Source: Thermoleophilia bacterium
GTDB taxonomy: Bacteria; Actinomycetota; Thermoleophilia; UBA2241
Assembly (NCBI GenBank): GCA_035686425.1
Contig: DASRZL010000154.1
Coordinates: 954 to 64,953, forward strand
DNA: 64,000 nt
Reading direction: 5' to 3'
The position numbers and the translations under genes are program-made. A model generated the notes under the pieces. The model searched no databases. It was not told the DNA's origin and saw only the letters and a program-made list of their open reading frames with translations. Of this stretch, positions 162-52,397 are shown piece by piece. How positions within the stretch are numbered: position 1 is the first letter of the stretch; each line of letters opens with the position of its first letter.

Positions 162-1415
162 TCAGGCGTCGCCGGCGACGATCTCGCGTCGCAGCAGCAC
201 CAGCTCGTCGGCGAGCCAGTCTGCTCGCGCGCGCCGCATCTCCACGCCGGCCTCGCGCAGCACGTAGCTCGGCCCCTTGTTGACGTTGCGCACAGTGATC
301 AGTACGTCGATGCCATGCCCGACGAGCCATTCGGCCACGAGGATCCCCTTCTGCTTCTCGAGTGCGCGATGCGGGTTCTCGAGGATCTCCTGCCGCAGCA
401 CCCGACCGTCGGCCGTGCTGACCTCGGCGAGGCCGAAGTGGGGGGCCTCGCCGAACTCGTTGCCGATTGCGCCGTCGGGCGAAGCAAGGGGCAGCGCCAA
501 GCGGAGGATGTCGCGGCGGCGGGGCTCCAGATGAAGGTTCACCCGTTCCACGGCAGGGACCGCAACGCGGATCTGGGCCTCCAGGTCCTCGCTGACCGCA
601 TGCGCCTTGACGAGGTCGTCAGTGCGCAGGCGCAGGCTGGCCTCGACGAACACGTAGCGCCCGGCGTTGCGCACCGCCCGTCCGTCGACGTGTTCGACGA
701 GTGCTTCCGCCGTCAGGATCGTGTCGACGCGGGCGAGCGTCCCGGCGTCGACCGATGCGTCCAACAGGACCCTCATGCCGCTCACCAGCAGCCCCCAGCC
801 GGAGTAGACGGCGAACCCGAGGATCACGAGGGCGCCCGCGCGGTCTATGTTGAAACCGGCGTAGGTGGACACGACCGCGACCAGCGCGACGGCCGTCGAT
901 ACCACGTCAGTCTGGCGATGTTTGCCGTCCGCCACCAGGGCCGGCGACGAAACGCGCTTGCCCAGCCTCGTCGCGTACCAGCCGTAGGCCCACGTCGCCG
1001 CGATCGTGACCACGACACCGGCGATGACCAAGGGGTCGATGCTGGGTGTTGGTCGGCCGCTCACGAAAGCCTCCCGCGCGATCTCATACGAGGCGATGAA
1101 GATGAGCAGCGCTATGGCTACCTGCAGGAGGTTCTCGATCTTGTAGAGGCCGTAGGGGAAGGCGGTGGTCTTACGCTCCGAGAGCCTGAGGCCGAGCCAC
1201 AGCGCCAGCGCTGCCGCCACGTCGACCACACAGTCCACCGCCGTCGCAGTGAGCGCGAAGCTATGAGAGACCGCGGCGATGGTCACGGTCAAGGTCACCA
1301 GGGCCACGCTCACCAAGACACCCCATGTCGCGACCCGCGCCACCGCGTGACCCACGGCGGCGCGGTCGCCGTCCGCTCGACCGCCGGCGCGGGTCTCCCT
1401 CGTCGCCGGCCCGCT
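162..1415 (-). CDS. Cation diffusion facilitator (CDF) family metal transporter with a C-terminal NifX/NafY-like (dinitrogenase FeMo-cofactor family) domain. Alternative start at 1445.
   Basis: The ORF contains the CDF signature region (SHSFALTATAVDCVVD ... AFPYGLYKIENL) and six predicted TM helices. The C-terminal about 100 aa (GILVAEWLVGHGIDVLITVRNVNKGPSYVLREAGVEM) resembles the NifB/NifX/NafY family. GAGGTGG lies 8 nt upstream of the ATG at 1415. The first 115 codons of the long ORF are Arg-rich off-composition and are excluded. Confidence 0.7.
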   Translation of the reverse strand, partial: SGPATRETRAGGRADGDRAAVGHAVARVATWGVLVSVALVTLTVTIAAVSHSFALTATAVDCVVDVAAALALWLGLRLSERKTTAFPYGLYKIENLLQVAIALLIFIASYEIAREAFVSGRPTPSIDPLVIAGVVVTIAATWAYGWYATRLGKRVSSPALVADGKHRQTDVVSTAVALVAVVSTYAGFNIDRAGALVILGFAVYSGWGLLVSGMRVLLDASVDAGTLARVDTILTAEALVEHVDGRAVRNAGRYVFVEASLRLRTDDLVKAHAVSEDLEAQIRVAVPAVERVNLHLEPRRRDILRLALPLASPDGAIGNEFGEAPHFGLAEVSTADGRVLRQEILENPHRALEKQKGILVAEWLVGHGIDVLITVRNVNKGPSYVLREAGVEMRRARADWLADELVLLRREIVAGDA

Positions 1416-1639
1416 CATCGCCGCAGCCACCTCGGACGGCCACATGCGGGTGACCTGGACACATGGGACATCGCGCACCTCCAGTCCGTCGACTGTACTC
1501 CCGCCGCTGCACGTCGTGCCACTGCATCGGCGAGCGGGCCAGGAGCTGCTACGCGAGCGGCTGCTGCGGGCGTTCGCCCCGGTCGTGACGGGGTCTGAGC
1601 TGAGGCTGGCGTGGTCATGCCGGTGAGTGCGGGGAGAAG

Positions 1640-1670
1640 GAAGAGGGCCGCCCTTGGGGCGGCCCTCTTC
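1640..1670. terminator. GC-rich hairpin: perfect inverted repeat GAAGAGGGCCGCCC-TTGG-GGCGGCCCTCTTC. It lies between the convergent 3' end of the peroxiredoxin gene and the CDF gene start. No U-tract.
   Basis: A perfect 13-14 bp stem with a 4 nt loop is read directly from the sequence. It sits about 35 nt downstream of the Prx stop at 1703. Confidence 0.45.
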
Positions 1671-1702
1671 CTCGTGTCGAAGTCGGTGATCAACAAGGCA
1701 GA

Positions 1703-2314
1703 CTACTCGTCGTCCCTCGGCTGCCAGACCTCCCACACGCGTCCGACCAGGTCCGGTCCGGGCTTGAGCACCTTCTTGCCTGGCTCCCATCCGGAGGGCG
1801 TGACCTCCTTCCCCCCGGTGGCGCGCACGTGCTGGAACGCCTTGATCTGCCGCAGCGTCTCCGCGATCTTGCGACCGACGGGCGGGACGAGCACTTCCAT
1901 GGCCTGGATCACGCCGTCTGGGTCGATGATGAACCGGCCACGGATGTCGACGCCGGCCTCAGCGTCGTAAACACCGTAGGCGCTGCCCAGATGGCCCGCC
2001 GCGTCGGCGAGCATCGGGAAGGGCACGCCGCCCTCCGTCATCTTCGCGAGCTCGTTCTCATCCCACATCTTGTGGACGAACTGCGAATCCACGCTGGCCG
2101 ACAGCACTTCGGCGCCCAGCGCCTGGAACTCGTCGTACTTCTCGGCGACCGCCGAGATCTCGGTCGGTCACACGAAGGTGAAATCACCCGGGTAGAAGCA
2201 GAGGACCACCCACTTGCCCAGCAGGTCCGAGAGCTTGACCTGGGTGAAGACGCCCTTGTGGTAGGCGGGCGCGACGAAGTCCGGCGCCTTGCGGCCGACC
2301 ATGATGGTACTCAC
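1703..2314 (-). CDS. Typical 2-Cys-type peroxiredoxin (AhpC/Prx1 family) with an in-frame UGA (2168-2170) at the peroxidatic-Cys position. This is a candidate selenocysteine peroxiredoxin (PrxU-like). The resolving Cys is replaced by Thr.
   Basis: Two track ORFs (2168-2419 and 1703-2107) are in the same frame. They are separated only by the TGA at 2168-2170. Read-through gives ...[45 protein letters not shown].... This is the canonical Prx active-site motif with U in place of Cp. The C-terminal motif is KEVTPSGW instead of EVCPAGW. GTG at 2314 is preceded by AAGGAGA; the in-frame ATG is at 2302. Confidence 0.75.
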
Positions 2315-2912: not shown

Positions 2913-3275
2913 ATGAGCGTGCCTGACTTTGACGACTGGATCAGCGATGTGAAGTCGCAGCCGGGATCAGCTGCGATCGGCATGATTCTGGCCCACCAAG
3001 GCATCGTGCGTGGAACGTCCCGGTCGGGCGGACTCGTGAGGGGGATGACCCTCCGCACCGACGCCGGCCGGCTTGACGAGGCGCTCGCCGAGGCCGCGAC
3101 GTGGCCGGGCGTCTTCGCCGTGCGCGGCTGGGCCAACGAGGGGGAACTCTCGGTCGGCGACGACATCATGAAGGTGCTCGTCGCCGGCGACATCCGCGAG
3201 CACGTCTTCGCGGCCCTCCAGAGACTCGTGTCCCTGATGAAGACGGAGGTGCTGATGGAGTCGGAGCTGACCTGA
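2913..3275 (+). CDS. MoaE-like protein (molybdopterin synthase catalytic-subunit family), short form of 120 aa.
   Basis: The alignable motifs are GMILAHQGIVRG and WPGVFAVRGWANEGELSVGDDIMKVLVAGDIREHVFAALQRLVSLMK. They align to the MoaE GxVTFTGxVR and HRxGELxxGDxIVxVxVxSxHRxxAFxAxxxxMDxLK blocks. GGATGGGAG lies 4 nt upstream of the ATG. Confidence 0.45.
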   Translation: MSVPDFDDWISDVKSQPGSAAIGMILAHQGIVRGTSRSGGLVRGMTLRTDAGRLDEALAEAATWPGVFAVRGWANEGELSVGDDIMKVLVAGDIREHVFAALQRLVSLMKTEVLMESELT

Positions 3276-3346
3276 GACCTACGGCGCGGTCGTCTGTGGG
3301 AGAGGCTCCGCGCCCACGCCTCGTTCATTCCCGGGAGAGGAGCGAC

Positions 3347-3997
3347 ATGTACACGTGTGCCGAGTGTGGTCGTGTGTCCTGCGCTACCGGCGACGCAGCG
3401 TCCTACCCGCGCAACTGCCCGTCGCGCGAGTCATTCGAAGCGGAGGCGCTCGACCAGTATCGCGAAGGGGAAGACGGGCACCTGGCGCGAAACGCCGCCC
3501 TGGTGGAGGCGCAAGGGTACTGCCGGCTGACGCGCGTGGAGGAAATCATGGACTTCGCCCGCCGCTGCGGCTACTCGAAGCTGGGCCTCGCCTTCTGCAT
3601 CGGTCTTCAGGCCGAGGCCGCAGTCACCAGTCGGGTGCTCAGGGCGAACGGCTTCTCGGTCGACTCGGTGGCCTGCAAGAACGGCAGCCTCCCCAAGGAG
3701 GAGCTGGGTCTGGGTGACGAGGACAAAGTCACCCGGGGCGAGTTCGAAGGGATGTGTAACCCGATCGGCCAGGCGCGGGCCCTGGATCATGCCGGGACCG
3801 AGCTCAACCTGCTGCTCGGTCTGTGCGTCGGCCACGACAGCCTGTTCATGAAGCACTCAGTGGCTCCGGTGACCGTGCTGGCCGCCAAGGACAGAGTGCT
3901 GGGCCACAACCCGCTGGCGGCGATCTACATGGCGGACGGCTACTACTGTGACAAGCTGTTCCCGAAGGCGGACGACGCGGAGGGGGGCTGCGCCTGA
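3347..3997 (+). CDS. DUF1847-family Cys-rich metal-binding protein.
   Basis: The N-terminal MYTCAECGRVSCATGDAASYPRNCPS start and overall length are typical of DUF1847. A strong RBS (GGGAGAGGAG) is present. The first 82 codons of the track ORF are rejected as an Arg-rich upstream extension. Confidence 0.6.
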   Translation: MYTCAECGRVSCATGDAASYPRNCPSRESFEAEALDQYREGEDGHLARNAALVEAQGYCRLTRVEEIMDFARRCGYSKLGLAFCIGLQAEAAVTSRVLRANGFSVDSVACKNGSLPKEELGLGDEDKVTRGEFEGMCNPIGQARALDHAGTELNLLLGLCVGHDSLFMKHSVAPVTVLAAKDRVLGHNPLAAIYMADGYYCDKLFPKADDAEGGCA

Positions 3998-4043: not shown

Positions 4044-4556
4044 CTATTTCGCGTGGTCGCGGTGCTCGCCGCGCCGCCGGAACGTCGTGTCGCTGACCCG
4101 GTCCGTCCAGCCGCCTCGTGTGTCCACGCGCAGGTCGAACTTCTCGACGTAGGGTTTGATATCGAGGAGCGGCGTGCCGTCAAGTATGTCGAGGTCCTCG
4201 ACCACGAGCACGTTCCCGCGCCGCTCCACCAGGCGCACGAGGCTCAGGCCGAGCGGGTTGGGACGCACGGGGGTCCGCGTCGCGAAGACGCCTCGGGGCA
4301 CGTCGTCCAGATAGGGGACGACCTTCAGCGGCGACGGGCCGGCGACCGAACTCACTACTTCGCCGGCCCGGTGCAGCCAGTAGATCAGGTGCAGGTGCGA
4401 GAAGCCCTCGATGTCATCGAGGGCGTCGGCGAACTGCGGGAAGATCTCGACCCAGCCGCGGCTGCCTTGAGCGCAGACCGGCTGGATTGGCGTGCGCGCA
4501 TGCTCGCGATGCTCGCTGTAGATGGTCCCTATCGGCTCGAGGATGAGCCTCTCCAT
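4044..4556 (-). CDS. TsaA/TrmO-like (YaeB family) tRNA methyltransferase.
   Basis: Family-typical blocks MERLILEPIGTIYSEHREHARTPIQP and ...PNPLGLSLVRLVERRGNVLVVEDLDILDGTPLLDIKPY are present. The start is placed at the internal ATG (4556) where similarity begins. Confidence 0.65.
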   Translation of the reverse strand: MERLILEPIGTIYSEHREHARTPIQPVCAQGSRGWVEIFPQFADALDDIEGFSHLHLIYWLHRAGEVVSSVAGPSPLKVVPYLDDVPRGVFATRTPVRPNPLGLSLVRLVERRGNVLVVEDLDILDGTPLLDIKPYVEKFDLRVDTRGGWTDRVSDTTFRRRGEHRDHAK

Positions 4557-4730
4557 GCGCACCTCCCACGTGGCTGCGGCAAAGCATACTCCGACGTGAG
4601 GACCCGCGCGGCCATGACGATGGGGCTTCGCGATCGAGTCGGAGCCCTTCGCTCGTATCGCGGGCTCGCTCTGCAGCTGAAGGAAGGGGCCGGCGGACTC
4701 GAGGACGGCGACGCCCCTCCACAACAGGAA

Positions 4731-4853: not shown

Positions 4854-5993
4854 TCAGGCCGCCTCGGCGGCCTTCTGCCCCGTGGCCGCCTCAGTCTCCT
4901 CGGCATGGACCTTCACGCGCGAGAAGTAGAGGGCCAGCGGCCGGTAGGCGAGGTGCGCCCACTTACCGAACGGCACCTCGAGGACCAGCATCGGGACGAT
5001 GCCCATGAGGTGGATGATGTACATCGCGTTCGCCGCCGCATCGAACCCCAGACGATGCAGGGCCGTCTGCAGCACGCCGGTGACGGCCACGTAGAGCAGC
5101 AGGTACAGGAACATCCAGTCGCTCTCGTGTGAGTGCGCGTGCTGCGGCGCGTCCTTCTTGAGGCGGCCGCGGATGTTCAGGATCACTGCGGCGATGAGGC
5201 CGATCGAGGCGAGGTAGCCGAACGCGTGCACCCGCCAGTCGATCTCCGGCCCGGCCTGCATGTAGCGCAGGAAGAACATGATGAGCACGAGCATGGTGAC
5301 GTAGCTCAGCATGAGCACCATGTGGACTGCCCACGGGCGTTTGCGATCGCACCTGCGCATCTTCGTCTGGGTGAAGAACTGGTAGGGCAACTGAGGCAGG
5401 GCGGCGAGATAGGAGCCGATCCCGGCCCCCGAGCCGCCCATGACGTTGCGCCACATGCGGAGCACGTTGATGCCCAGCAGGCCGACGAGGATGATCGCCA
5501 TCCCCCAGTCGAAGCGATGGACGTAGTGGCTCGGCAGGAAGGCGTTCTCGCCGTCGTAGACGCTGAAGCTCCCACCGTTCAAGATGCCGAACGCCACGAA
5601 CCCGATGCCGGTGAGGATCGCCGCGATGACGATAGCGATGATCTCCCAGGCGGGCGAGCGGTAGAACAAGCCGCTGAGGCCGCTGAAGTCGTACTTGGCC
5701 GTGAGCCAGCGGCGCATGCTCATCATGGTCTCGGCGGGGTCGGCCTCCTTGGGGCACTGCTCCGAGCACTCACCGCAGTAGTAGCAGAGCCAGGGCTCGA
5801 TATCGCCCTTGAGCTTGTCTTCGAGTCCGACCTGCACGGCGTGCAAGGGGCGGCGCGGGAGGATGTAGTCACCTTCGGAGTGCACGCACACGGCCGAGCA
5901 GTTCCCGCAGTTGAAGCACTTGTCGATGTCGGTCGCGCCGTACTCGTGGAGCTCGTCGGCGAGCCCCGGTTTGATCTGTATCGCCATCGTCAC
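4854..5993 (-). CDS. QmoC-like membrane subunit: an N-terminal HdrC-like domain with two 4Fe-4S clusters fused to an HdrE/NarI-like b-type cytochrome membrane domain.
   Basis: The N-terminus carries CFNCGNCSAVC and CYYCGECSEQC cluster motifs. These are followed by 5-6 hydrophobic helices with conserved His residues (SHYVHRF, WAVHMV, RVHAFG, YIIHLM, KWAHLA). That pattern is typical of di-heme NarI/HdrE anchors. Confidence 0.75.
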   Translation of the reverse strand: MTMAIQIKPGLADELHEYGATDIDKCFNCGNCSAVCVHSEGDYILPRRPLHAVQVGLEDKLKGDIEPWLCYYCGECSEQCPKEADPAETMMSMRRWLTAKYDFSGLSGLFYRSPAWEIIAIVIAAILTGIGFVAFGILNGGSFSVYDGENAFLPSHYVHRFDWGMAIILVGLLGINVLRMWRNVMGGSGAGIGSYLAALPQLPYQFFTQTKMRRCDRKRPWAVHMVLMLSYVTMLVLIMFFLRYMQAGPEIDWRVHAFGYLASIGLIAAVILNIRGRLKKDAPQHAHSHESDWMFLYLLLYVAVTGVLQTALHRLGFDAAANAMYIIHLMGIVPMLVLEVPFGKWAHLAYRPLALYFSRVKVHAEETEAATGQKAAEAA

Positions 5994-5998
5994 TCCAC

Positions 5999-6487
5999 CT
6001 AGATGAACAGGTTGACGTTGGCTTCATCGGCCTTGCCCAGATAGGCGGCGACGCCCTCGAACTCGATGTCGTCGATGAGCTCCTCCTCGGTGAAGCCGAG
6101 GATCTCCATCGACAGCGTGCAGGCGACGAACTTGACGTCCATCTCCCTGGCGCTGTCGAAGAGCTCCTCGAGCGACATGCCGCCGGCATCCTTCGTGGCC
6201 TTCCTCATCATGGGGCTGCCGGCGCCGGCGAAGTTCATCTTGGAAAGGCCGAGCTTCTTCGTGCCCTTGGGCATCATGCCGCCGAACATCTTCTGGAGGG
6301 TGCTCTTCTTGCCGTTCCCGTTCGACTTCACCTTCTCGGTCTTGCGCAGGATGTTGAGCCCCCAGAAGGTGCAGAAGATGGTGACGTCGTCGCCCATGGC
6401 GGCGGCGCCGTTGGCGATGATCAGGGCCGCCATGACCTTGTCGAAGTCGCCGCTGAACAGAATGATGGTCTTCTTGCTGGTATCCAT
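5999..6487 (-). CDS. DsrE/DsrF-like (DsrE2-type) sulfur-relay protein.
   Basis: The TIILFSGDFDKVMAALIIANGAAAMGDDVTIFCTFWGL ... VKFVACTLSMEIL blocks match the DsrE/TusD fold family. GAGAGGAA lies 6 nt upstream of the ATG at 6487. The start overlaps the upstream stop (TGATG). Confidence 0.7.
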   Translation of the reverse strand: MDTSKKTIILFSGDFDKVMAALIIANGAAAMGDDVTIFCTFWGLNILRKTEKVKSNGNGKKSTLQKMFGGMMPKGTKKLGLSKMNFAGAGSPMMRKATKDAGGMSLEELFDSAREMDVKFVACTLSMEILGFTEEELIDDIEFEGVAAYLGKADEANVNLFI

Positions 6488-6759
6488 CACGATTCCTCTC
6501 GTGGGACCGCTTGATAGGGGAAGTAGCCGTCGTCGTCGACCTCTTTGATCTCCGCGATCCAGCCGTACTTGCGCAGGCCCATCACCCAGAAGACGACCTC
6601 TCGGCTGGGCCTGCCCAGCGCCTCGGCTATCTGGGGAATGGTCAGCGGGCCGGACTCGAGCGCCTTGAGGATCCGGCCCCTCATGAACTGCTCATCGCGG
6701 ATGATCTCGCGGACGTCGCGGGGACGTGCCTCGAGCTGTGCCGTGTCGGTCGTGCTCAT
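6487..6759 (-). CDS. Small (90 aa) winged-helix-like protein of unknown function inside the cluster. Possibly a regulatory or assembly factor.
   Basis: The translation is MSTTDTAQLEARPRDVREIIRDEQFMRGRILKALESGPLTIPQIAEALGRPSREVVFWVMGLRKYGWIAEIKE. It is coupled at both ends: ATGA with the upstream gene and TGATG with the downstream gene. The first 69 codons of the track ORF are antisense junk. Confidence 0.5.
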   Translation of the reverse strand: MSTTDTAQLEARPRDVREIIRDEQFMRGRILKALESGPLTIPQIAEALGRPSREVVFWVMGLRKYGWIAEIKEVDDDGYFPYQAVPREES

Positions 6760-8498
6760 ACGCACACCACCTCCAGCATGCCGTCGATCATCGCCTTGAT
6801 CTGGGCGTCGGTGTAGCCCTGCAGGTCGATCGCGTCCGACGGGCAGACGGGGACGCAGCCGCCGCAGCCCTTGCAGGCGGTGCGGGAGATCGTCGCGATC
6901 TCCTTGCCGCCCTCCTCTACCTTGGCGATGGCGTCGTAGGGACAGGTGAACTCGCAGGCGCCGCACCAGGTGCAGGCGTCGGCGTCGACGGTGGCGACGA
7001 GCGGGTCGAGCTCGGCGTAGCCGCGCTTGAGGATAGCGGCGCTCTGGGTCACCGCGGCGAGCCCGGAGGCAACCGACTCGGACGAGGTCTTGGGACTTTG
7101 GCAGGCGCCGCAGATGTAGGCGCCGTCCACGACCGTCTCGACCGGGCGCAGCTTGGGGTGGATCTCGTTGTAGAAGCCGCTCTGACCCACCGGCAGCTTG
7201 AGCGTCTTGGTCAGTCCCTCGTTCTCCCGTGGCACCATGCCGGTGACCAGGACGACCAGGTCGGCGGCGAGCGCGACCTCCTCGCCCTCTGACAGGAGGT
7301 CGCGGGCCGTCACCGTGACGCCGCCGGACTTCGCGTCCTTCTCGACCGCCGGCGGCTCGTCGTCGGGGAACTTGACGAACGCAGAGCCCTTCTCGAGCGC
7401 ATCGGCGTACAGAAGTTCGTACTTCCCGTAGGTCCGCATATCGCGGTAGAAGTGGTACTGGTGGACGCGCCCGGGCCGGGCATCGACCTGGGTCGCCGCG
7501 TGCACGGCTGCCGTGCAGCAGTAGCGCGAGCAGTAGGTGTTGGCGCCCTCCACGCTCTCGTTCTGGCGGCTGCCCACGCAGTAGATGTAAGCGACCGTCT
7601 TGACGGGCCGGCCGTTGTACTTGAGCGGCCCATCCGTCTCGTCGAGGAGCTTCTTGAAGTCGGCGATGGTGACGACGCCGTCGATGCCGTAGCCGAGCTC
7701 GCCCTCCTCCGGCTTGTAGGTATCGAAGCCGGTGGCGATGACGATGGAGCCCACGTCGACGGTGATCGTCTCGAGGCGCTCGCCGTTCGTGACGGCGATC
7801 GTCGCCTCGTAGTTGCCGAAGCTGCCGCTCTTGGCGACCAGCTCCGCGCTCGTGAACACGGTGATCGCCGGGTGCGAGCGCACCTTCTTCTCGAGCTTCG
7901 CTATCAGCTCGCGGCCGTTGCGGCCCTGCGGGAACATCTCGCGGAAGCCTGCGACCCAGCCGCCGAGCCTGGCCTCCTTCTCCGCGAGGAACACGTGGAG
8001 GCCGACCTCGGCGAGGCCGAGGGCGGCGCGCAGGCCTGCGACCCCGCCGCCCACCACGAGGCTCTTCGGCGTCGTCTCGACGACGATCGGCTCGAGCGGG
8101 TCGGTGAGGCGCGTGCGGTTGATGCCGGCGCGGACGAGCCGCACCGCCTTGTCGGTCGCGCCCTCATGGTCGTCGGTGTGCGTCCACGAGCACTGCTCGC
8201 GCACGTTCACCTGCGTGTACTGAAACGGGTTCATGCCCGCGCGCTTGGCGACGTCGCGGAACGTGAAGGTGTGGAGCTTGGGCGAGCAGGAGGCGATGAC
8301 GAGCCCGTCCAGGCCCTGCTCGCGCGCATCCTCGATGATCTCGGTCTGGGTCGCGTCCGAGCAGGTGAACATGGCCGTCTTTGCCACAGTGACTCCCTGC
8401 TCCTTCTCGACCTCGGCGACGACCTCGTTCACGTCGACGTAGTCGCCGATGTTGCCGCCGCATTGGCAGACGTAGACACCGATCTTGTCGGCGCTCAT
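6756..8498 (-). CDS. Fusion flavoprotein: an N-terminal MvhD-like domain, an HdrA-like FAD/FeS core and a C-terminal 2x[4Fe-4S] ferredoxin domain. It is QmoB-like but with the MvhD module at the N-terminus.
   Basis: The MvhD-like block is IGVYVCQCGGNIG...FTCSDATQ...DGLVIASCSPKLHTF...REQCSW. The FAD fingerprint is LVVGGGVAGLRAALGLAE. The HdrA signature is YCVGSRQNESVEGANTYCSRYCC. The C-terminal ferredoxin motifs are CTWCGACEFTCP and CKGCGGCVPVCP. Confidence 0.8.
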   Translation of the reverse strand: MSADKIGVYVCQCGGNIGDYVDVNEVVAEVEKEQGVTVAKTAMFTCSDATQTEIIEDAREQGLDGLVIASCSPKLHTFTFRDVAKRAGMNPFQYTQVNVREQCSWTHTDDHEGATDKAVRLVRAGINRTRLTDPLEPIVVETTPKSLVVGGGVAGLRAALGLAEVGLHVFLAEKEARLGGWVAGFREMFPQGRNGRELIAKLEKKVRSHPAITVFTSAELVAKSGSFGNYEATIAVTNGERLETITVDVGSIVIATGFDTYKPEEGELGYGIDGVVTIADFKKLLDETDGPLKYNGRPVKTVAYIYCVGSRQNESVEGANTYCSRYCCTAAVHAATQVDARPGRVHQYHFYRDMRTYGKYELLYADALEKGSAFVKFPDDEPPAVEKDAKSGGVTVTARDLLSEGEEVALAADLVVLVTGMVPRENEGLTKTLKLPVGQSGFYNEIHPKLRPVETVVDGAYICGACQSPKTSSESVASGLAAVTQSAAILKRGYAELDPLVATVDADACTWCGACEFTCPYDAIAKVEEGGKEIATISRTACKGCGGCVPVCPSDAIDLQGYTDAQIKAMIDGMLEVVCV

Positions 8499-11263
8499 GC
8501 CGTCACCTCCACGGTCGCGGCCTCACTGACGGCGACTTCCGCCGTCCCATGCGCCTTCTCGATGTGCGCGGCGGCCTGGGCGACCGCGGCGCCGGCGTGG
8601 AGGATCGAGTCGGGGATGTCCTTGACGCCCGAGGCCGAGCCGGCGACGAACACGCCGGGCAGGTTGGTGCGTCCGGGGTCCAGGTCCTCGTCGGCCTCGC
8701 CGACGTAGAAGTACTCGTCGAGGCCGAGGGCGCCGTCCTCGAAGAGCCCGGCGACCTGGGTGTTGGGCTGCACGCCGACGGCGAGGACGACCATGTCGTA
8801 CTCGGCCTCGACGATGCCGCCGTCGCCCTCGACGTCCTCGTAGCGGACGATGAGGTCGCCGTTGTCCTTCTCGGTGATCTTGGCGACGCGCCCCTTGATG
8901 AACATGGAGCCCATGTCCACGGCCTGCTTGTAGAACTCGTCGTAGCCTTTGCCCACCGCGCGCACGTCCATGTAGTGGACGGTCACATCGGCGAGCGGCA
9001 GGGCGCCCATGATCAGCTGGTTGTGCTTGATGGAGTACATGCAGCAGATGCGCGAGCACAGGGGGTTGCCCACCTGCGCGTCGCGAGAGCCGGTGCACAT
9101 GATGAAGCCGATGCGATCGGGGACCTTGCCGTCGCCGGGACGCACCACGGAGTTGAACGGGCGCGTCGGGGCGAGCAGGCGGTCCATCTGCATGCCGGTG
9201 ATGACGTTGGCGAACTTTCCGTAGCCGTATTCCGGCTTGGCGTCGGCGGGGAAGAGCTTGAAGCCGGTGGCGAGCACGACGGCGTCGACGTCGACCTCGA
9301 TCTCCTCTTCGCGCATGTCGAAGTCGATGCAGTCGGCCGGGCAGGCGTCCACGCACGCGTGGCACTCAGAGCACACGCCGCAGTCGAGGCAACGGGCGGC
9401 GCCGAGGAAGGCTTCATCCTCGGTCATCGGCGCCTCGGTCTCGTTGAAGTCGGTCGGCGCGGCGTTCATCGCGGCATGGGACTCGAACGGCTCACGCTGG
9501 TCGTAGACGTCCTGCCGCGCGAGCACGCTCTTCTTGTCGGCGACCGGGAGCGCCTCGTCGAACGCATCCGCGTCCAGGGCCTCGCCCTGGAGGAAGCGGT
9601 CGATCATGAAGGCCGCGCGGCGGCCTTGGCCGACGGCGGTCGTGATCATGCTCGGGCCGGTGACGACGTCGCCGGCGGCGAAGACGTGCGGAGCCGACGT
9701 CTGCAGCGTGCCCGCGTCGGCCTTCAGGGTCCGGCTTGGGTTGGCCTCAAGGCCGAAGGACTCGGTGTCGGCGCCCATGCCTGCGGCGACGATGACGAGG
9801 TCGCACTCCACCGTCTGCTGCTGGCTCTCGTCGTACTCGGGAGCAAACTTGCCCGAGGGGTCGAAGACGCAGGTGCAGACCTTGAGCACGGCGCCCTCGA
9901 CCTCACCCTCGCCGGTGAAGTGGTTGACGCCCCAGCCGTCGTGCAGCGTGATGCCCTCGGCCTTGGCCTCCTCGACCTCGAAGTCGTGGGCAGGCATGTC
10001 TTCGCAGCACTCGAGGCTGGCCTGGTGGACCTCGGCGGCGCCGAGACGACGCGCTGTGCGCGCCGCGTCGATGGCCACGTTGCCGCCGCCGACCACGAGG
10101 ACCTTGCGGGCGGAGAGATCGACGTTCTTGCCGAGCTTGACGTCGGCGAGGAAGGTGAGGGCGCTCATGACGCCGCCCTTGTCCTCGCCGGGCACGCGCA
10201 GCTGCACGGCCTTGTGTGTGCCCGTCGCCACGAGGACGGCGTCGAAGCCCTCGTCGGTGAGCTTGGCGGGATCGTCGACCCTGACGCCGGTCTCGATCTC
10301 GACGCCGATGCCGGTGACGTTGGCGATGTCGTCGTCGACGACGTCGTTGGGCAGGCGGTACGCGGGGATGCCGAGTGCCAGGAAGCCGCCGGCGCGCTCG
10401 GCCTTCTCAAGGATCTTGACGCCGTAGCCCTTGCGGGCGAGCTGCCAGGCGGCGGTGAGACCTGCTGGGCCCGAGCCCACGACGGCGACCTTCTTGCCGT
10501 TCTGCTCGGGCTTCTCCGCGGCCTTGGACTCCGCCTGGCCGTACCGCTTGTCGGCGATGAAGCGCTTGAGGCGACGTATCGGCAGCGGGCCTTCGAGCTC
10601 GCCGCGGGTGCACTCGCCCTCGCAGGGCGCGTAGCACGCGCGCCCGAGCGAGCCGACCAGCGGCGTCGTCTCGAGCACCAGGTCGAAGGCCTGGTCGTAC
10701 TCGCCGCTGCGCACGCGCGCGACGTACCCGTGCGCCTTGATGCCCGCCGGGCACTCGTAGGTGCACGGCGAGACGCCTTCGCGGCTGATGACTGCTTTCT
10801 TGGGCACCGCCTGCGGGAAGGCGATGAAGGCCGCCCGCCGCGACACCATGTCGGCGTTGTACTCGTCCGGCACGGCGACGTTGCAGGCCATCTCGCACTG
10901 GCGGCAGCCGGTGCAGGCGGCCTCGTCGATGAACTTGGGCTTCTGCTTGATCTTCGCGTGGTAGCCGGCGGGGCCGCTGCCGTTGCCGTCGCCGCCGTTG
11001 CCGCGGATCGCTTCGACCTCCGCGTACGTGAGCACGTCGATGTTGGGGTGATGGATGGTGGCGCCCATCTTGGGCGTGGAGATGCAGCTGGCGCAGTCGA
11101 GCGTGGGGAAGACCTTGCTGAGCAAGATCATCTTGCCGCCGACGCTCGGCTCCTTCTCGACGACGAGGACCTTGTAGCCCATGTCGCCGAGTTTGAGCGC
11201 CGATTCCATGCCGCCGATGCCGCTGCCGACGACGAGGGCATCGTACTTGCGCTTCTCGCTCAT
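8495..11263 (-). CDS. Large (922 aa) HdrA-like flavoprotein with an inserted GltD/NfnB/SudA-like NAD(P)H-binding FAD module and additional 4Fe-4S motifs.
   Basis: The N-terminal FAD fingerprint is YDALVVGSGIGGMESA. The FeS motifs are CTGCRQCEMAC and CLDCGVCSECHACVDACP. The GltD-like block is KKVAVVGSGPAGLTAAWQLARKGYGVKILEKAERAGGFLALGIPAYRLP. The HdrA signature is CTGSRDAQVGNPLCSRICC. The ATG at 11263 overlaps the upstream stop (ATGA). Confidence 0.8.
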   Translation of the reverse strand: MSEKRKYDALVVGSGIGGMESALKLGDMGYKVLVVEKEPSVGGKMILLSKVFPTLDCASCISTPKMGATIHHPNIDVLTYAEVEAIRGNGGDGNGSGPAGYHAKIKQKPKFIDEAACTGCRQCEMACNVAVPDEYNADMVSRRAAFIAFPQAVPKKAVISREGVSPCTYECPAGIKAHGYVARVRSGEYDQAFDLVLETTPLVGSLGRACYAPCEGECTRGELEGPLPIRRLKRFIADKRYGQAESKAAEKPEQNGKKVAVVGSGPAGLTAAWQLARKGYGVKILEKAERAGGFLALGIPAYRLPNDVVDDDIANVTGIGVEIETGVRVDDPAKLTDEGFDAVLVATGTHKAVQLRVPGEDKGGVMSALTFLADVKLGKNVDLSARKVLVVGGGNVAIDAARTARRLGAAEVHQASLECCEDMPAHDFEVEEAKAEGITLHDGWGVNHFTGEGEVEGAVLKVCTCVFDPSGKFAPEYDESQQQTVECDLVIVAAGMGADTESFGLEANPSRTLKADAGTLQTSAPHVFAAGDVVTGPSMITTAVGQGRRAAFMIDRFLQGEALDADAFDEALPVADKKSVLARQDVYDQREPFESHAAMNAAPTDFNETEAPMTEDEAFLGAARCLDCGVCSECHACVDACPADCIDFDMREEEIEVDVDAVVLATGFKLFPADAKPEYGYGKFANVITGMQMDRLLAPTRPFNSVVRPGDGKVPDRIGFIMCTGSRDAQVGNPLCSRICCMYSIKHNQLIMGALPLADVTVHYMDVRAVGKGYDEFYKQAVDMGSMFIKGRVAKITEKDNGDLIVRYEDVEGDGGIVEAEYDMVVLAVGVQPNTQVAGLFEDGALGLDEYFYVGEADEDLDPGRTNLPGVFVAGSASGVKDIPDSILHAGAAVAQAAAHIEKAHGTAEVAVSEAATVEVTA

Positions 11264-11697
11264 GATGCCGCCTTCCTGGCCGGTCCAAGGCCCGACAAGG
11301 AGGCCGCGTACTCGTGCATGTAGTTGGTGAAGGGCTCTGCGCAGACGGAGCAGACCGCGGCCATGCGCACGCGCTGCGGCTCAAGGCCCTTCTCGACGAG
11401 CATGTCTTGCGCGGTCTGCATGATGCCGGAGGTGCGCTCGGCGCAGTCCGGAAGATACGCGCACTCCTCGCCGTCGGCGGCGATGAAGACGCCGTCGAAG
11501 CCCTGCTCCATGGCGTACACGATCCAGCTGGGCTTGACCGCGCTCGTGCAGGGCAGGTTGATGACCATCACCTTGGGCGAATAGTGCATGTGCGAGCTGC
11601 CGGCCAGGTCGATGCCCGGATCCGAGATGTTGTTTGTGCTGAAGACCAGGATCCGCGGGTCGTAGGCTTGGCCTTCGGGTGTTTCAGCCGCGGTCAT
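11260..11697 (-). CDS. MvhD/FlxD-like small FeS protein. It is a divergent form lacking the N-terminal Cys pair.
   Basis: RILVFSTNNISDPGIDLAGSSHMHYSPKVMVINLPCTSAVKPSWIVYAMEQGFDGVFIAADGEECAYLPDC aligns to the MvhD core. The CCNWCSY position reads STNNISD. The start is at the internal ATG (11697), 2 nt after the tusA stop. Confidence 0.6.
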   Translation of the reverse strand: MTAAETPEGQAYDPRILVFSTNNISDPGIDLAGSSHMHYSPKVMVINLPCTSAVKPSWIVYAMEQGFDGVFIAADGEECAYLPDCAERTSGIMQTAQDMLVEKGLEPQRVRMAAVCSVCAEPFTNYMHEYAASLSGLGPARKAAS

Positions 11698-11699
11698 CG

Positions 11700-11951
11700 T
11701 CACTTCATCTTCTTGACGAAGAGGCGCATGTAGCCGGGCTCCTCGACGACGCCGAGGTACTCGTGACCCATCTTCTTGCTCCACGCGGGGAGGTCCTTGG
11801 TGGTGCCGCTGTCGGTGGCCTGGACTTCCATGATCCCACCGACGGTCACGCTGGGGATGCCCTTCTTGGCGGCAAGGATCGGGCCGGGGCAGCTGGTGCC
11901 GCGGGCGTCGACGATCTTCTCTGCCTGGATGGTGCTGAGGTCCTCTGACAT
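11700..11951 (-). CDS. tusA: TusA-family sulfur carrier protein (CPxP motif).
   Basis: MSEDLSTIQAEKIVDARGTSCPGPILAAKK... carries the conserved CPGP. AAGGAG lies 6 nt upstream of the ATG at 11951. The upstream 20 codons of the track ORF are excluded. Confidence 0.75.
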   Translation of the reverse strand: MSEDLSTIQAEKIVDARGTSCPGPILAAKKGIPSVTVGGIMEVQATDSGTTKDLPAWSKKMGHEYLGVVEEPGYMRLFVKKMK

Positions 11952-12048
11952 GGTGATCTCCTTCGTGACGGGACGGTGTCGTGACGCTTGTGCTTGTGCT
12001 TTCTTTCGCAAGCGATGGCCTGATGACGCGCCGTTGCCTGCTGGTCCA

Positions 12049-12486
12049 CTAGGTCGTGTCTTCTCTCCCCTGGCTCGTTGGCGTCGGACTCAAGGTCTGC
12101 GCTGCAGCCTGCTGCGCGGCGTCGAGGAACTCGGCCGCTTGCAGCGACTCGCCCTGGGCCTGGTGCTGCTCCACCAGCGCCTGGCGGATCAGGGCGCATG
12201 CCTCCATGAACTTCTGGTTCGTGACGCGGTAGTAGACGGTCTGCCCCTCCTTGCGCGACGCGACGAGCCGGCGCTCCTTGAGGACGCGGAGGTGCTGCGA
12301 CACGTTGTGCACCGAGATGCCGATCTCGGCGGCGATGTCGCCGACGCTCCGCTCGTCGCTGCAGACGGTGTGCAGGATCGCCTGGCGGTGCTCGTTGGCC
12401 AGGGCCCGGCAGAGTTCCGCGTGCATGCGAAAGAGGGGCTTCAGGTCCGGGGGCGAGGCCGTTTTGGTGTCATTGCGTATTTGCAT
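12049..12486 (-). CDS. ArsR/SmtB-family transcriptional regulator with conserved Cys residues. sHdrR/SoxR-like; it is the probable regulator of the downstream tusA-hdrA-qmoC cluster.
   Basis: The HTH region is ELCRALANEHRQAILHTVCSDERSVGDIAAEIGISVHNVSQHLRVLKERRLVASRKEGQTVYYRV. The gene lies immediately upstream of tusA on the same strand. It diverges from the plus-strand gene at 12591. Confidence 0.75.
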   Translation of the reverse strand: MQIRNDTKTASPPDLKPLFRMHAELCRALANEHRQAILHTVCSDERSVGDIAAEIGISVHNVSQHLRVLKERRLVASRKEGQTVYYRVTNQKFMEACALIRQALVEQHQAQGESLQAAEFLDAAQQAAAQTLSPTPTSQGREDTT

Positions 12487-15027: not shown

Positions 15028-15222
15028 TCAGCCCGCCGTCGCCGCCGCGAGCGTGCGGTAAACGGTTTCGAGCGAGTTCGTCGGGACTCGCTTGCGGACG
15101 GCCTCGTACACCGTCTCCACGTCCGGGTGCGTCTCGTCGGCGGCGACCACGCGAAGGATCTCGAGCCGCTGGTGCGTGAGGCGAAGGCCGGCGTCGCGGA
15201 TGCCCTGCGAGAGCTGCTGCAC
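15028..15222 (-). pseudogene. Fur-family regulator fragment. Only the N-terminal winged-helix DNA-binding domain (64 aa) is present. The metal-binding/dimerisation domain is missing.
   Basis: LRLTHQRLEILRVVAADETHPDVETVYEAVRKRVPTNSLETVYRTL is the Fur N-domain. The ORF stops immediately before the large hairpin. No Fur C-domain is found in any frame downstream. Confidence 0.4.
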
Positions 15223-15346
15223 CCAGCGCTCGACCTCCGCTGCAGGTACGGCCAGACTCCTTCCGGTCTGGTCGCGCCGGTTCCTGTACAGGAACTATTC
15301 GCCGGTACCCGTCCCGGAAGTGACGAAACCGGTGCTCGGTTGTGTA

Positions 15347-15904
15347 ATGTGTGGACTGATGGAGACCTTCACCGAGCCAAGGCCACTGGTAGCGAACGAC
15401 CGCTACGCCGACGAGCGGCGGACGGCCCTCGATGCCCTCGACCTGGCCGCCGTCGACGACCCGATCATCGACATCGTGGAGGCGTTCGAGCTGCTGCCGC
15501 ACTGCTTCACGCTCCAGTGCTGCTACGGGCACTTCGTGACCGCGGCGCGGCAGGACGAGCGCAGCCTGGCGGCGATCCCCGACGGTCACAGTGGGTCGGT
15601 CCGGTACCGGGTCGCCTACGTCGCCTTCTGCGTGGAGAACGGCGAGCGGGGCCGTGCGTTTCTCGACAAGCTGTCGCGGATCCCGGCCGCCGACCCGGCC
15701 TACATCCAATTCGGCTCCGCCGGCTGGTTCTGGGATCAATGGGTCAACTCCTACGTGCTCCAGGTGGAGCCGGCCGCGCACCGCTTCAAGGACCAGGCAG
15801 CGCTCGCGGCCGGCGAGGCCGTGCACACGCAGCGGGTCAGGGACGCCTTCTTCGCGGAGCTCCGGCAGGTGCTGGCGGAGGAGCTGGATCGGCTCGCGAC
15901 CTGA
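15347..15904 (+). CDS. Hypothetical protein (about 185 aa), divergent from the Fur-like fragment.
   Basis: A coherent non-Arg-rich translation begins at MCGLMETFTEPRPLVANDRYADERRTALDALDL... The 85 codons upstream in the track ORF are junk-like. Confidence 0.45.
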   Translation: MCGLMETFTEPRPLVANDRYADERRTALDALDLAAVDDPIIDIVEAFELLPHCFTLQCCYGHFVTAARQDERSLAAIPDGHSGSVRYRVAYVAFCVENGERGRAFLDKLSRIPAADPAYIQFGSAGWFWDQWVNSYVLQVEPAAHRFKDQAALAAGEAVHTQRVRDAFFAELRQVLAEELDRLAT

Positions 15905-16090
15905 CTGCCCACCGCTCTCGGGGTCGCGCCTGCGCCCGCGGGATCAGCATCGTGCGGGTCGTACCGTGGCCGCCCGGGGCCGGAGCGTCGTTCACGGTTT
16001 TGACCTCTCGCCGCCCAGGGCAGGACTCCGGAAGCAGGCCGATCGCCGCGGCCTCAACGGTGGAGATCCGCGGCAGAAGAGGACCTTCAC

Positions 16091-16327
16091 ATGATGACCA
16101 CTCAGGCAGATGGCCGAGGGACCCGGCGTCAGAGACTCTGTCGCCGGCCACGGCAACAGTGGATCGAGGAGGAGCGCCCCCTGATCGAGCGGCAGCACTT
16201 CTGCAACGCGGAGGTGGCGGCCACCGGATCCGTGGCCATCCGGGTGCCGTGCGACCACTCGGAGAACGACGCGAGTGCCGACAGCGAGGTCCTCGTCTGC
16301 GTTGCGCCCAAGGACGCGGTGGTCTGA
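16091..16327 (+). CDS. Small (78 aa) Cys-containing hypothetical protein. Its stop abuts the next start (TGAATG).
   Basis: AGAGGA lies 8 nt upstream of the ATG. It has four Cys residues (C17, C38, C54, C70). It ends at TGA 16325-16327, directly followed by the ATG at 16328. Confidence 0.3.
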   Translation: MMTTQADGRGTRRQRLCRRPRQQWIEEERPLIERQHFCNAEVAATGSVAIRVPCDHSENDASADSEVLVCVAPKDAVV

Positions 16328-16807
16328 ATGGCCGTCGACGTCTTCACAGAGATCGTCATCCGGCGCCCGCGCGATGAGGTAGCGGGCTACGTCGCGGACC
16401 CCGGCAACGCTCCCGAGTGGTATGTCAACATCGAGTCGGTCCGGTGGCAGACCGAGCCGCCCGCCCGCGTGGGGTCGCAGATCGCGTTCGTGGCCCAGTT
16501 CCTCGGGCGGCGCCTCGCCTACACCTACGAGATCGTCGAGTTCGCGCCCGGCGAGAGACTCGTGATGCGCACCGCCCAGGGGCCGTTCCCGATGGAGACG
16601 ATCTACACGTGGGAATCGACTCCGGAGGGCGACACGCGCATGGCGCTGCGCAATCGCGGGACTCCGGCCGGCTTCTCGACGCTGGCGGCGCCGCTGATGG
16701 CCGCCTCGATGCGCCACGCCAACAAGAAGGACCTGGCGCGGCTGAAGACATTCCTCGAGGGGCGGCCCCCGGCCCCGGGGGCCGGGAAGGGCAGGCGAGG
16801 GGCGTAA
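16328..16807 (+). CDS. SRPBCC-superfamily protein (polyketide cyclase/dehydrase-like).
   Basis: MAVDVFTEIVIRRPRDEVAGYVADPGNAPEWYVNIESVRW... has the typical SRPBCC N-terminal pattern and length. Confidence 0.7.
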   Translation: MAVDVFTEIVIRRPRDEVAGYVADPGNAPEWYVNIESVRWQTEPPARVGSQIAFVAQFLGRRLAYTYEIVEFAPGERLVMRTAQGPFPMETIYTWESTPEGDTRMALRNRGTPAGFSTLAAPLMAASMRHANKKDLARLKTFLEGRPPAPGAGKGRRGA

Positions 16808-30329: not shown

Positions 30330-30471
30330 GCGGGGCCCCCTTGTGGGTCGTGAGCACTGCGAGTCCTCGCGTTCAGGATAGCCCGCAGAGCCGAGAAAGG
30401 CACCTGCAAGGACGGCGCCGTCACTGGCGGTGTAGGCTTGCCACTCCACTTGGGAAGGACTGAGGAAGACG

Positions 30472-30861
30472 ATGAACGACGAAGAACGGCAGATCCTCCG
30501 TATCGCGGTACCGTCCGACGAGCCCGGCGGGTTGGACGCGGCGCGCTCCGGGCGCTTCGGCCGCAGCCCGTGTTTCACCATCGTCGACGTCATCGACGAC
30601 GTGATGGTCAACGTCCTCGTCGTCGCCAATGAACGGCACGACAAGGGCGACGACTGCATCACACCGATCCTCACCCTCGGCGAGAACTTCGTCGACGTCG
30701 TCATCGTCGCCGGCATCGGGCGCCGGCCGCTGCTCCACTGCGTGCAGGCCGGCATGCGCGTGTTCGCTGGCGAGGACCGGCCCGACGTCCGCTCGGTGAT
30801 CGAGGCGTTCATGGACGCCGAGCTCGAGCCGGTCGGGCACGACGCCACCCGCTCGCACTGA
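30472..30861 (+). CDS. Stand-alone NifX/NafY/NifB-C-terminal-like domain protein (dinitrogenase FeMo-cofactor family fold).
   Basis: ILRIAVPSDEPGGLDAARSGRFGRSPCFTIVDV ... VDVVIVAGIGRRPLLHCVQAGMRVFAG matches the family blocks. Confidence 0.65.
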   Translation: MNDEERQILRIAVPSDEPGGLDAARSGRFGRSPCFTIVDVIDDVMVNVLVVANERHDKGDDCITPILTLGENFVDVVIVAGIGRRPLLHCVQAGMRVFAGEDRPDVRSVIEAFMDAELEPVGHDATRSH

Positions 30862-51106: not shown

Positions 51107-51195
51107 TGCGCGTCTCCTCGGTGATCGCTTCCGCGCGTCCAGATGAGCCAAGTGTACTCGCGCGTCAAGCGCGACGGAAACTGCGCCGCCCGCCC

Positions 51196-52317: not shown

Positions 52318-52397
52318 GGTGGAGTCAGTGTACCTGTGGCGAGCAGGCGCGTACCCTGCCGGGCGAACGGCGGTTCAGGCAACTCCCGCGAGTCCGG

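Follow-up and report, generated by a model that had tools for sequence, protein, structure and literature searches.

A seven-gene operon of Thermoleophilia that sets Hdr/Qmo-type redox proteins and an MvhD variant of changed cysteine set beside two sulfur carriers

We analysed a 64,000-nucleotide stretch of DNA from a Thermoleophilia bacterium (assembly GCA_035686425.1, contig DASRZL010000154.1, positions 954 to 64,953; hereafter the window), which has a G+C content of ~69%. A row of open reading frames (ORFs) on its minus strand, at positions 4854-12486 and with G+C contents at third codon positions (GC3) of 0.85-0.94, contains a tightly packed operon of seven genes. In order on that strand these encode TusA, a variant of MvhD, HdrL, an HdrA of 580 amino acids (aa), a 90-aa winged helix-turn-helix (wHTH) protein, DsrE2 and a QmoC-like protein, with an ArsR-type regulator just upstream; by coordinates, the junctions are four 4-bp overlaps and two gaps of 2 and 5 nucleotides (nt). 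On balance, this operon probably encodes an electron-transfer complex of the Hdr/Qmo type joined to two sulfur carriers, in which MvhD has been re-wired and the two HdrA relatives form a heterodimer. Full-text searches of the literature found no description of the MvhD variant or of the operon. The genes are as follows.

12049..12486, minus strand: transcription regulator of the ArsR/SmtB family (Pfam HTH_5, E 3.5e-10; NCBIfam HTH_metalloreg, 82 bits against a cutoff of 55).
11700..11948, minus strand: TusA sulfur-carrier protein, 82 aa, with a C-P-G-P motif (Pfam TusA, E 2.5e-19; NCBIfam TusA, E 5e-12, under the cutoff).
11260..11697, minus strand: MvhD/FlpD-fold protein of the variant subfamily, 145 aa (Pfam FlpD, 101.5 bits, E 4e-29, full length).
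8495..11263, minus strand: HdrL, or type III HdrA, 922 aa (PDB 8rvu_a, E 4e-101; Pfam Fer4_20 and Pyr_redox_2; NCBIfam PRK12771, 446 bits).
6756..8498, minus strand: HdrA paralog, 580 aa (PDB 5odc_A, E 1.4e-110; Pfam Pyr_redox_2/NAD_binding_8 and Fer4_21).
6487..6759, minus strand: small winged-helix protein, 90 aa (sub-threshold wHTH Pfam matches only; 4-bp overlaps with both neighbours).
5999..6490, minus strand: DsrE2-type sulfur-carrier protein, 163 aa (Pfam DrsE_2, E 2.7e-58; PDB 3pnx, E 4e-37; NCBIfam DsrE2, 86 bits against a cutoff of 210).
4854..5993, minus strand: QmoC-like membrane subunit, 379 aa (NCBIfam qmoC, E 8e-52, 177 bits against a cutoff of 300).

The 145-aa protein has the MvhD fold with a changed set of cysteines. 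It matches the Pfam FlpD model (PF02662) over positions 1-123 of 123, against a gathering threshold of 22.3 bits, and the MvhD and ElpC chains of the PDB at E 2e-14 to 1e-7. When its AlphaFold2 (AF2) model is searched with Foldseek, the top matches are 5odh_D, 5odc_D, 8rvu_F and 7bkb_F (E 4e-11 to 8e-9, TM 0.72-0.83), well apart from whatever comes next. Canonical MvhD has five invariant cysteines, arranged as a C-x-x-C after β1, one Cys after β2 and a C-x4-C after β3, of which four are inferred to serve as ligands. In the variant, the loop that reads F-C-C-N-W-C-S/T-Y in solved MvhD chains becomes F-S-T-N-N-I-S-D. Here, T21 and I24 replace the β1 Cys pair and D75 replaces the first β3 Cys, C50 and C79 are kept, and E78 falls at the position of MvhD Asp71, as read from the GCHxGDC alignment. 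The variant has also gained three cysteines, C85 where helix 3 begins and the pair in C116-S-V-C119 right after β4. The original prediction had called this a stand-alone MvhD-like protein that lacks its first Cys pair and has altered cluster ligands; the missing pair is borne out, as is a change among the presumed ligands, and the alteration goes further than had been described, since a further conserved Cys has become an Asp and three cysteines have been gained.

These substitutions are highly conserved. In an alignment of 226 subfamily sequences with 44-95% identity, C50 and C79 are each present in 225/226, C85 in 223/226, C116 in 210/226 and C119 in 212/226, while position 75 is Asp in 220/226 and Cys in four, and the F-S-T-N-N-I-S-D loop is retained at >90%. 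Cysteine patterns were also tabulated across FlpD proteins, using those representatives of 50%-identity clusters that cover every scored position (~80). The full canonical five-Cys pattern is present in 63 of them and the variant pattern in eight; a β1 ligand Cys is found in 66, C116 and C119 together in 13, and both features in none. In the AF2 model, C50, D75, C79, C85, C116 and C119 all sit where β2, β3 and β4 end on their C-terminal side or immediately beyond, and by alignment this is the same face where the canonical MvhD cysteines fall. The mutual exclusion of the two features, the invariance of the six residues and the loop face they share argue, as far as sequence and model can speak, for a ligand exchange with compensation rather than for loss of a cluster. 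With 515 confirmed relatives in a scan of one genome per species, the variant appears from sequence to be a distinct and widespread subfamily.

It is unlikely, in our estimation, that the variant has instead lost its cluster to become a purely structural adaptor that joins the HdrA paralogs to QmoC/HdrC. Two of the four invariant, presumed-ligand cysteines of canonical MvhD are indeed missing, and the FlpD relatives P0293 and P0300 retain almost no Cys, both of which speak for such a loss. However, five cysteines and one Asp are conserved at ≥93% over the 226 sequences, and the gained cysteines never occur alongside the lost β1 ligand, a pattern that looks like compensation and not decay. Compared with MvhD, VhuD and ElpC, the [2Fe-2S] subunits of known complexes, the variant is alike in fold, length, adjacency to HdrA and the retention of C50 and C79, but differs in its Cys set and in having no hydrogenase or formate dehydrogenase partner in this operon. 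Further FlpD branches (proteins P0293, P0300, P0301, P0358, P0288 and P0315) have only the C-terminal C-x-x-C, accompanied by at most a single further Cys, or combine it with some of the canonical cysteines.

The 580-aa protein (ORF GC3 0.94) is an HdrA paralog whose domains follow the canonical HdrA order: an N-terminal four-Cys domain (aa 1-135, nt 8094-8498), a TrxR-like FAD domain with GxGxxG (aa ~143-490) and a C-terminal 2x[4Fe-4S] ferredoxin (aa ~500-560, nt 6819-7001). Pfam places Pyr_redox_2 and NAD_binding_8 at 146-287 and Fer4_21 at 502-558, and the NCBIfam models HdrA2 (NF040770) and HdrA (NF041778) score 468 bits against a cutoff of 1100 and 380 against 1400, respectively. Residues 3-234 match residues 3-234 of 5odc_A, the HdrA of Methanothermococcus thermolithotrophicus, without a gap (172 bits), and residues 241-575 match 313-650 of the same chain; the HdrA of M. 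marburgensis aligns equally well to the N-terminal part. What is missing is the inserted 2x[4Fe-4S] ferredoxin domain, as 5odc_A 235-312 is skipped and ~6 query residues stand in its place. For canonical HdrA, the published description lists the Fe-S domain at the N-terminus, the FAD domains of TrxR type, the inserted ferredoxin and the C-terminal ferredoxin (PMC12054007). The N-terminal cluster of HdrA (A3/HA3), its C-terminal domain and MvhD move together as a ‘mobile arm’ (PMC13518236, PMC13580544).

The identity of the N-terminal domain matters here, as the original prediction had seen in it a complete MvhD domain. The ORF, its cysteine motifs (C11-Q-C13-G-G, F-T-C46-S-D, A-S-C71-S-P-K-L-H and Q-C103-S-W) and the C-terminal 2x[4Fe-4S] ferredoxin are all real. 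Yet the domain aligns to HdrA's N-terminal domain, and an AF2 model of residues 1-140 (pLDDT 74.5) retrieves seven HdrA chains in Foldseek at E 1e-12 to 9e-10 (TM 0.79-0.85, 38-48% identity), after which come generic three-layer α/β, flavodoxin-like folds at E ≥ 5e-3. No MvhD chain is among the top 50 matches, and Pfam FlpD matches no part of the 580-aa protein even at E ≤ 10. When HdrA N-terminal domains are compared with MvhD in hhalign, the match is borderline with the cysteines in register (probability 45-53%, E ~2e-4), and a very remote common origin of the two is possible. QmoB is built with a C-terminal fused MvhD/FlpD-like domain. The 580-aa protein has no fused FlpD domain and ends in a 2x[4Fe-4S] ferredoxin, so that neither the QmoB-like label nor the supposed reversal of the QmoB domain order can be kept. 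The presence of two MvhD modules in one cluster had also been thought unusual; an HdrA N-terminal domain together with an MvhD is instead the norm, and in HdrA2-type proteins a single chain holds the two, with positions 1-230 of the NF040770 model covering the 580-aa protein and positions 643-775 covering the 145-aa protein. The MvhD-like gene, which had been placed three genes upstream, is two genes upstream, with only the 922-aa gene between them.

That 922-aa neighbour is HdrL, an HdrA with a GltD-type NAD(P)H module. Its HdrA blocks, as defined by 8rvu_a, are residues 9-161 and 626-905, while residues ~164-636 match NfnA, GltD and DPD-type chains; the GltD/NfnB-like NAD(P)H-FAD module thus sits within the inserted-ferredoxin domain of the HdrA core. 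HdrL has neither the N-terminal domain nor the C-terminal ferredoxin domain of HdrA. An HdrA with an inserted GltD domain is known as type III HdrA (PMC12054007), and in Desulfobacterium autotrophicum, an mvhD gene accompanies each hdrL (Strittmatter et al., PMC2702500). The protein described here resembles the D. autotrophicum HdrL in its GltD/NfnB-like module and in its adjoining MvhD gene. It differs in that HdrL is here always followed by a second, complementary HdrA, in the linkage to TusA, DsrE2 and QmoC or HdrCB, and in the re-wiring of the MvhD.

The flavin sites of HdrL and the 580-aa HdrA diverge in a complementary way. In M. marburgensis HdrA, the flavin site contains the Cys pair Cys202/Cys205 (PMC13580544). 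Two further HdrA residues, K409 and E356, have been highlighted as important to the bifurcating flavin (PMC12054007). In the 580-aa protein the Cys pair becomes N194 and E197, and by alignment K409 becomes H333 and E356 becomes K282. Residues were counted by alignment in 63 orthologs of the HdrA paralog and 66 of HdrL. In the former, C11, C13, C46 and C71 are invariant (63/63) and C103 is variable (52/63), the Lys-to-His change is found in 54/63 and the Glu-to-Lys change in 59/63, and the residues tallied where the pair would be never include Cys. In the latter, the Cys pair is retained as C57/C60 in 66/66, K409 as K746 in 66/66, and E356 is replaced by an Asp, D694, in 65/66. Domains and flavin-site residues are therefore lost and kept complementarily between the two proteins, and this is conserved in more than 60 orthologs of each. 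By analogy with known HdrA dimers, this suggests that HdrL and the 580-aa HdrA are the two halves of one asymmetric HdrA dimer, an obligate heterodimer with a single bifurcation-type flavin. The methanogen HdrA of the MvhADG-HdrABC, Fdh-Hdr and Elp-Hdr complexes (5odc, 7bkb, 8rvu) has the same three-domain order as the 580-aa protein, but the latter is without the inserted ferredoxin and the Cys pair and has His and Lys in place of K409 and E356; and where methanogen HdrA is a homodimer, the 580-aa protein would be partnered with its HdrL paralog.

The operon ends with the gene for a QmoC-like protein, in which two [4Fe-4S] motifs and four invariant His are present. Residues 13-357 match positions 7-360 of 360 in the NCBIfam qmoC model (NF038018), with a score under the equivalog cutoff, and an N-terminal, HdrC-like 2x[4Fe-4S] region is followed by about six transmembrane helices predicted from hydropathy. 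The eight cluster cysteines are present in 34-35 of 35 sequences, and H159, H224, H328 and H347 in all 35. The loci analysed for gene context are the best 80 of the 515 relatives of the MvhD variant, and in ~31 of these the QmoC-like gene is swapped for HdrC (99 aa) and an HdrB-like protein with a single CCG domain (327 aa), as at 15107-16403 (plus strand) of locus L043; this type also occurs in close Thermoleophilia relatives. The alternation of QmoC with HdrC and HdrB-like proteins is the same as the QmoC/HdrBC alternation of Qmo. Of the two carriers, DsrE2 matches a structure (3pnx) annotated as ‘putative sulfurtransferase DsrE’. The wHTH protein, examined for likeness to DsrD or any known regulator, has no Pfam match above cutoff and no significant relative in the PDB (best E 0.044). 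Its gene comes after the HdrA paralog in essentially every locus that extends far enough, and this placement in the middle of the operon suggests a complex subunit or chaperone rather than a classical regulator. An ArsR homolog is found upstream in most actinobacterial loci; in L043 its place is taken by a CsoR/RcnR-family protein (9067-9447, minus strand), with a cluster of similar ORFs in eight loci. Both the ArsR and the CsoR families include known persulfide sensors (BigR/SqrR and CstR).

Across the 80 loci, TusA lies directly upstream of the MvhD variant in every case (80/80). Where a contig edge does not intervene, HdrL, HdrA and wHTH follow, and then QmoC-like (~39 loci) or HdrC and HdrB-like (~31), together with DsrE2. 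Gene order is kept in the ~70 complete loci except for the position of DsrE2, which in some Actinomycetota is relocated between MvhD and HdrL. The hosts come from at least five phyla and include Thermoleophilia, other Actinomycetota (metagenome-assembled genomes labelled Dactylosporangium and Intrasporangiaceae), Chloroflexia, Acidobacteriota, Symbiobacterium and Bacillota, the last with the cultured Desulfofundulus thermosubterraneus DSM 16057 and Desulfotruncus alcoholivorax DSM 16058. In metagenomes, close homologs of the 580-aa and 145-aa proteins are abundant and labelled Thermoleophilia. A haloarchaeal source of the window, at which weak HTH matches to HVO_* entries and the G+C content of 69% had hinted, is rejected, as the homologs and loci belong to Thermoleophilia/Actinomycetota. 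Clustering of the flanks found no neighbour common to more than 17 of the 80 loci; minority families comprise extra DsrE/TusA copies, PadR, hemerythrin, DUF5714 and an uncharacterised flavoprotein, an FAD-dependent pyridine-nucleotide-disulfide oxidoreductase with a Pfam match to Pyr_redox_2 only, which flanks six loci. Just downstream of the operon in the window lie a DUF1847 Cys-rich protein (3101-3997, plus strand) and a TrmO/TsaA-like protein (4044-4724, minus strand), and both genes are seen again next to the operon in a few related loci of Thermoleophilia.

From this gene content we infer an NAD(P)H-linked complex of the Hdr/Qmo type acting on carrier-bound sulfur. The operon would be expressed under the ArsR-type regulator, or a CsoR-type regulator in some Bacillota. 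NAD(P)H would enter at the GltD module of HdrL and pass its electrons to the HdrL flavin. The heterodimer would mimic the HdrA homodimer of methanogens, its parts shared out between the two proteins: HdrL would contribute the point of entry for NAD(P)H, the inserted ferredoxin and the sole complete flavin site of ‘bifurcation type’ (the Cys pair and the Lys, with the Glu as Asp). The MvhD variant would still bind an Fe-S cluster, with C116-x-x-C119 of the β4 loop replacing the β1-loop ligand and C85 and/or D75 completing the site. QmoC would link the complex to the menaquinone pool, whereas the HdrC/HdrB-like alternative would link it to a thiol/disulfide couple. TusA and DsrE2 would deliver or receive the sulfur substrate, which may be a persulfide or a thiosulfonate. 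Three redox partners around one HdrA-type flavin amount to the layout of a bifurcating or confurcating enzyme, and the whole is proposed to be an NAD(P)H- and quinone-linked reductase of carrier-bound sulfur, possibly working in one of these modes.

Several points weigh against this proposal. The AF2 model of the MvhD variant is of moderate confidence (pLDDT 70.5, with residues 25-39 below 50), and the presence of a cluster in the protein, like its ligand set, is deduced from residue conservation. The heterodimer is drawn by analogy with the methanogen HdrA homodimer and with QmoA/QmoB. The ArsR regulator reaches 46.6 bits in the BigR model against a cutoff of 155, a similarity too weak to assign a persulfide-sensor role to it. 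Lastly, a CCG-type catalytic subunit for thiols and disulfides is absent from the QmoC-type operon.

Where the sulfur chemistry would then take place can be narrowed down, since QmoC-type operons without a CCG domain yet always with TusA and DsrE2 imply that it occurs on C57/C60 of HdrL, on C116/C119 of MvhD, or outside the complex. The second of these can be taken further, with the MvhD variant itself as the catalytic sulfur site. Here, an Fe-S cluster beside the C116-S-V-C119 dithiol would reduce a persulfide or thiosulfonate carried by TusA/DsrE2 in one-electron steps, at a site likened to those of ferredoxin:thioredoxin reductase or HdrB. We regard this as quite unlikely. If true, it would explain how QmoC-type operons handle sulfur without a CCG subunit, and would define a new NAD(P)H/quinone-coupled, possibly bifurcating reductase of carrier sulfur that is common in soil Actinomycetota and Chloroflexota.

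The complex could also run in the opposite direction, oxidising sulfane sulfur delivered by TusA and DsrE2 and passing the electrons to NAD(P)+ and/or menaquinone, as in sHdr. TusA and DsrE-family carriers next to Hdr-like genes are a hallmark of sHdr loci. The operon shares with these loci (TusA/DsrE3) the genetic coupling of Hdr-like proteins to such carriers, thiosulfate transfer by DsrE and TusA homologs was reportedly described by Liu et al. in 2014, and the Pyr_redox_2 oxidoreductase beside six loci would suit an oxidative role. However, HdrL, MvhD and QmoC set this operon apart, the HdrA of sHdr is a short form of ~350 aa unlike the 580-aa and 922-aa proteins, and the operon genes and those annotated families that recur in the flanks showed neither a lipoate-binding protein nor an HdrB1/B2 pair. 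As the QmoC-type operon also lacks any CCG subunit, and the cultured hosts Desulfofundulus and Desulfotruncus are anaerobic sulfate reducers, an oxidative mode is distinctly improbable.

The likeness to Qmo raises another alternative, in which the proteins are a ‘type II’ QmoAB(C) that, like canonical Qmo, passes menaquinol electrons to adenosine 5′-phosphosulfate reductase during dissimilatory sulfate reduction. Two HdrA-related subunits with QmoC, or HdrBC in its place, follow the known Qmo pattern, and QmoABC and QmoAB-HdrBC further resemble this operon in having an MvhD-type module. Some of the hosts are sulfate reducers (loci L030 and L043). On the other hand, MvhD is separate here and forms the C-terminus of QmoB there, the GltD module sits on one flavoprotein and the HdrA N-terminal domain on the other, and the QmoC-like protein scores 177 bits against the equivalog cutoff of 300. 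The universally linked partners are tusA and dsrE2 and not aprBA, a scan of ~50 ORFs of the window yielded no apr, sat or dsr gene, and no flank neighbour is shared by more than 17 of the 80 loci. Loci also occur in genomes labelled Dactylosporangium, Intrasporangiaceae, Symbiobacterium and Chloroflexia, none of which are, to our knowledge, known as sulfate reducers. This reading is highly unlikely. ‘Type II’ Qmo with HdrA-like QmoAB has been reported from organisms with and without Dsr/Apr, its role being unknown (PMC10504309, PMC8477390), and from this description it may overlap with the operon seen here.

Least probable by far is the original prediction, a QmoB-like subunit with its MvhD domain moved to the N-terminus and hence an unusual pair of MvhD modules: the Cys spacing of the domain resembles MvhD, the weak hhalign match is in register and a QmoC-like gene lies within the operon, but the domain aligns one to one with HdrA's N-terminal domain from five solved complexes, Foldseek returns only HdrA at E ≤ 1e-9, FlpD is absent at E ≤ 10 and canonical HdrA is described with an N-terminal Fe-S domain (PMC12054007). 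What is Qmo-like about the locus lies in the QmoC-like gene (4854-5993) and the two HdrA paralogs.

Elsewhere in the window, a formate-dehydrogenase-like molybdoenzyme with a NuoG-like N-terminus (Fer2_4, NADH-G_4Fe-4S_3 and Molybdopterin) is encoded at 48425-51313 (minus strand), after which a MobA-MobB fusion protein is listed at 51196-52374 (minus strand). A cation-efflux (CDF) transporter with a C-terminal fused Nitro_FeMo-Co domain, which is dinitrogenase cofactor-binding-like, lies at 162-1790 (minus strand), and a stand-alone copy of the Nitro_FeMo-Co domain at 30436-30861 (plus strand).

The headline of a reversed QmoB is a misreading of ordinary HdrA anatomy, because the domain in question is HdrA's usual N-terminal [4Fe-4S] domain, and is best dropped. 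This leaves an MvhD subfamily with an apparently compensated exchange of ligands, and a split HdrL/HdrA pair in which only one flavin site has the residues linked to bifurcation, in an operon that is fixed with TusA and DsrE2 across hundreds of genomes, two cultured sulfate reducers included. It offers a natural experiment in how the placement of an MvhD-type cluster gates the entry of electrons to the HdrA flavin, in how asymmetric HdrA dimers work, and in what machinery of the Hdr/Qmo type may do with carrier-bound sulfur apart from classical sulfate reduction and sHdr oxidation.

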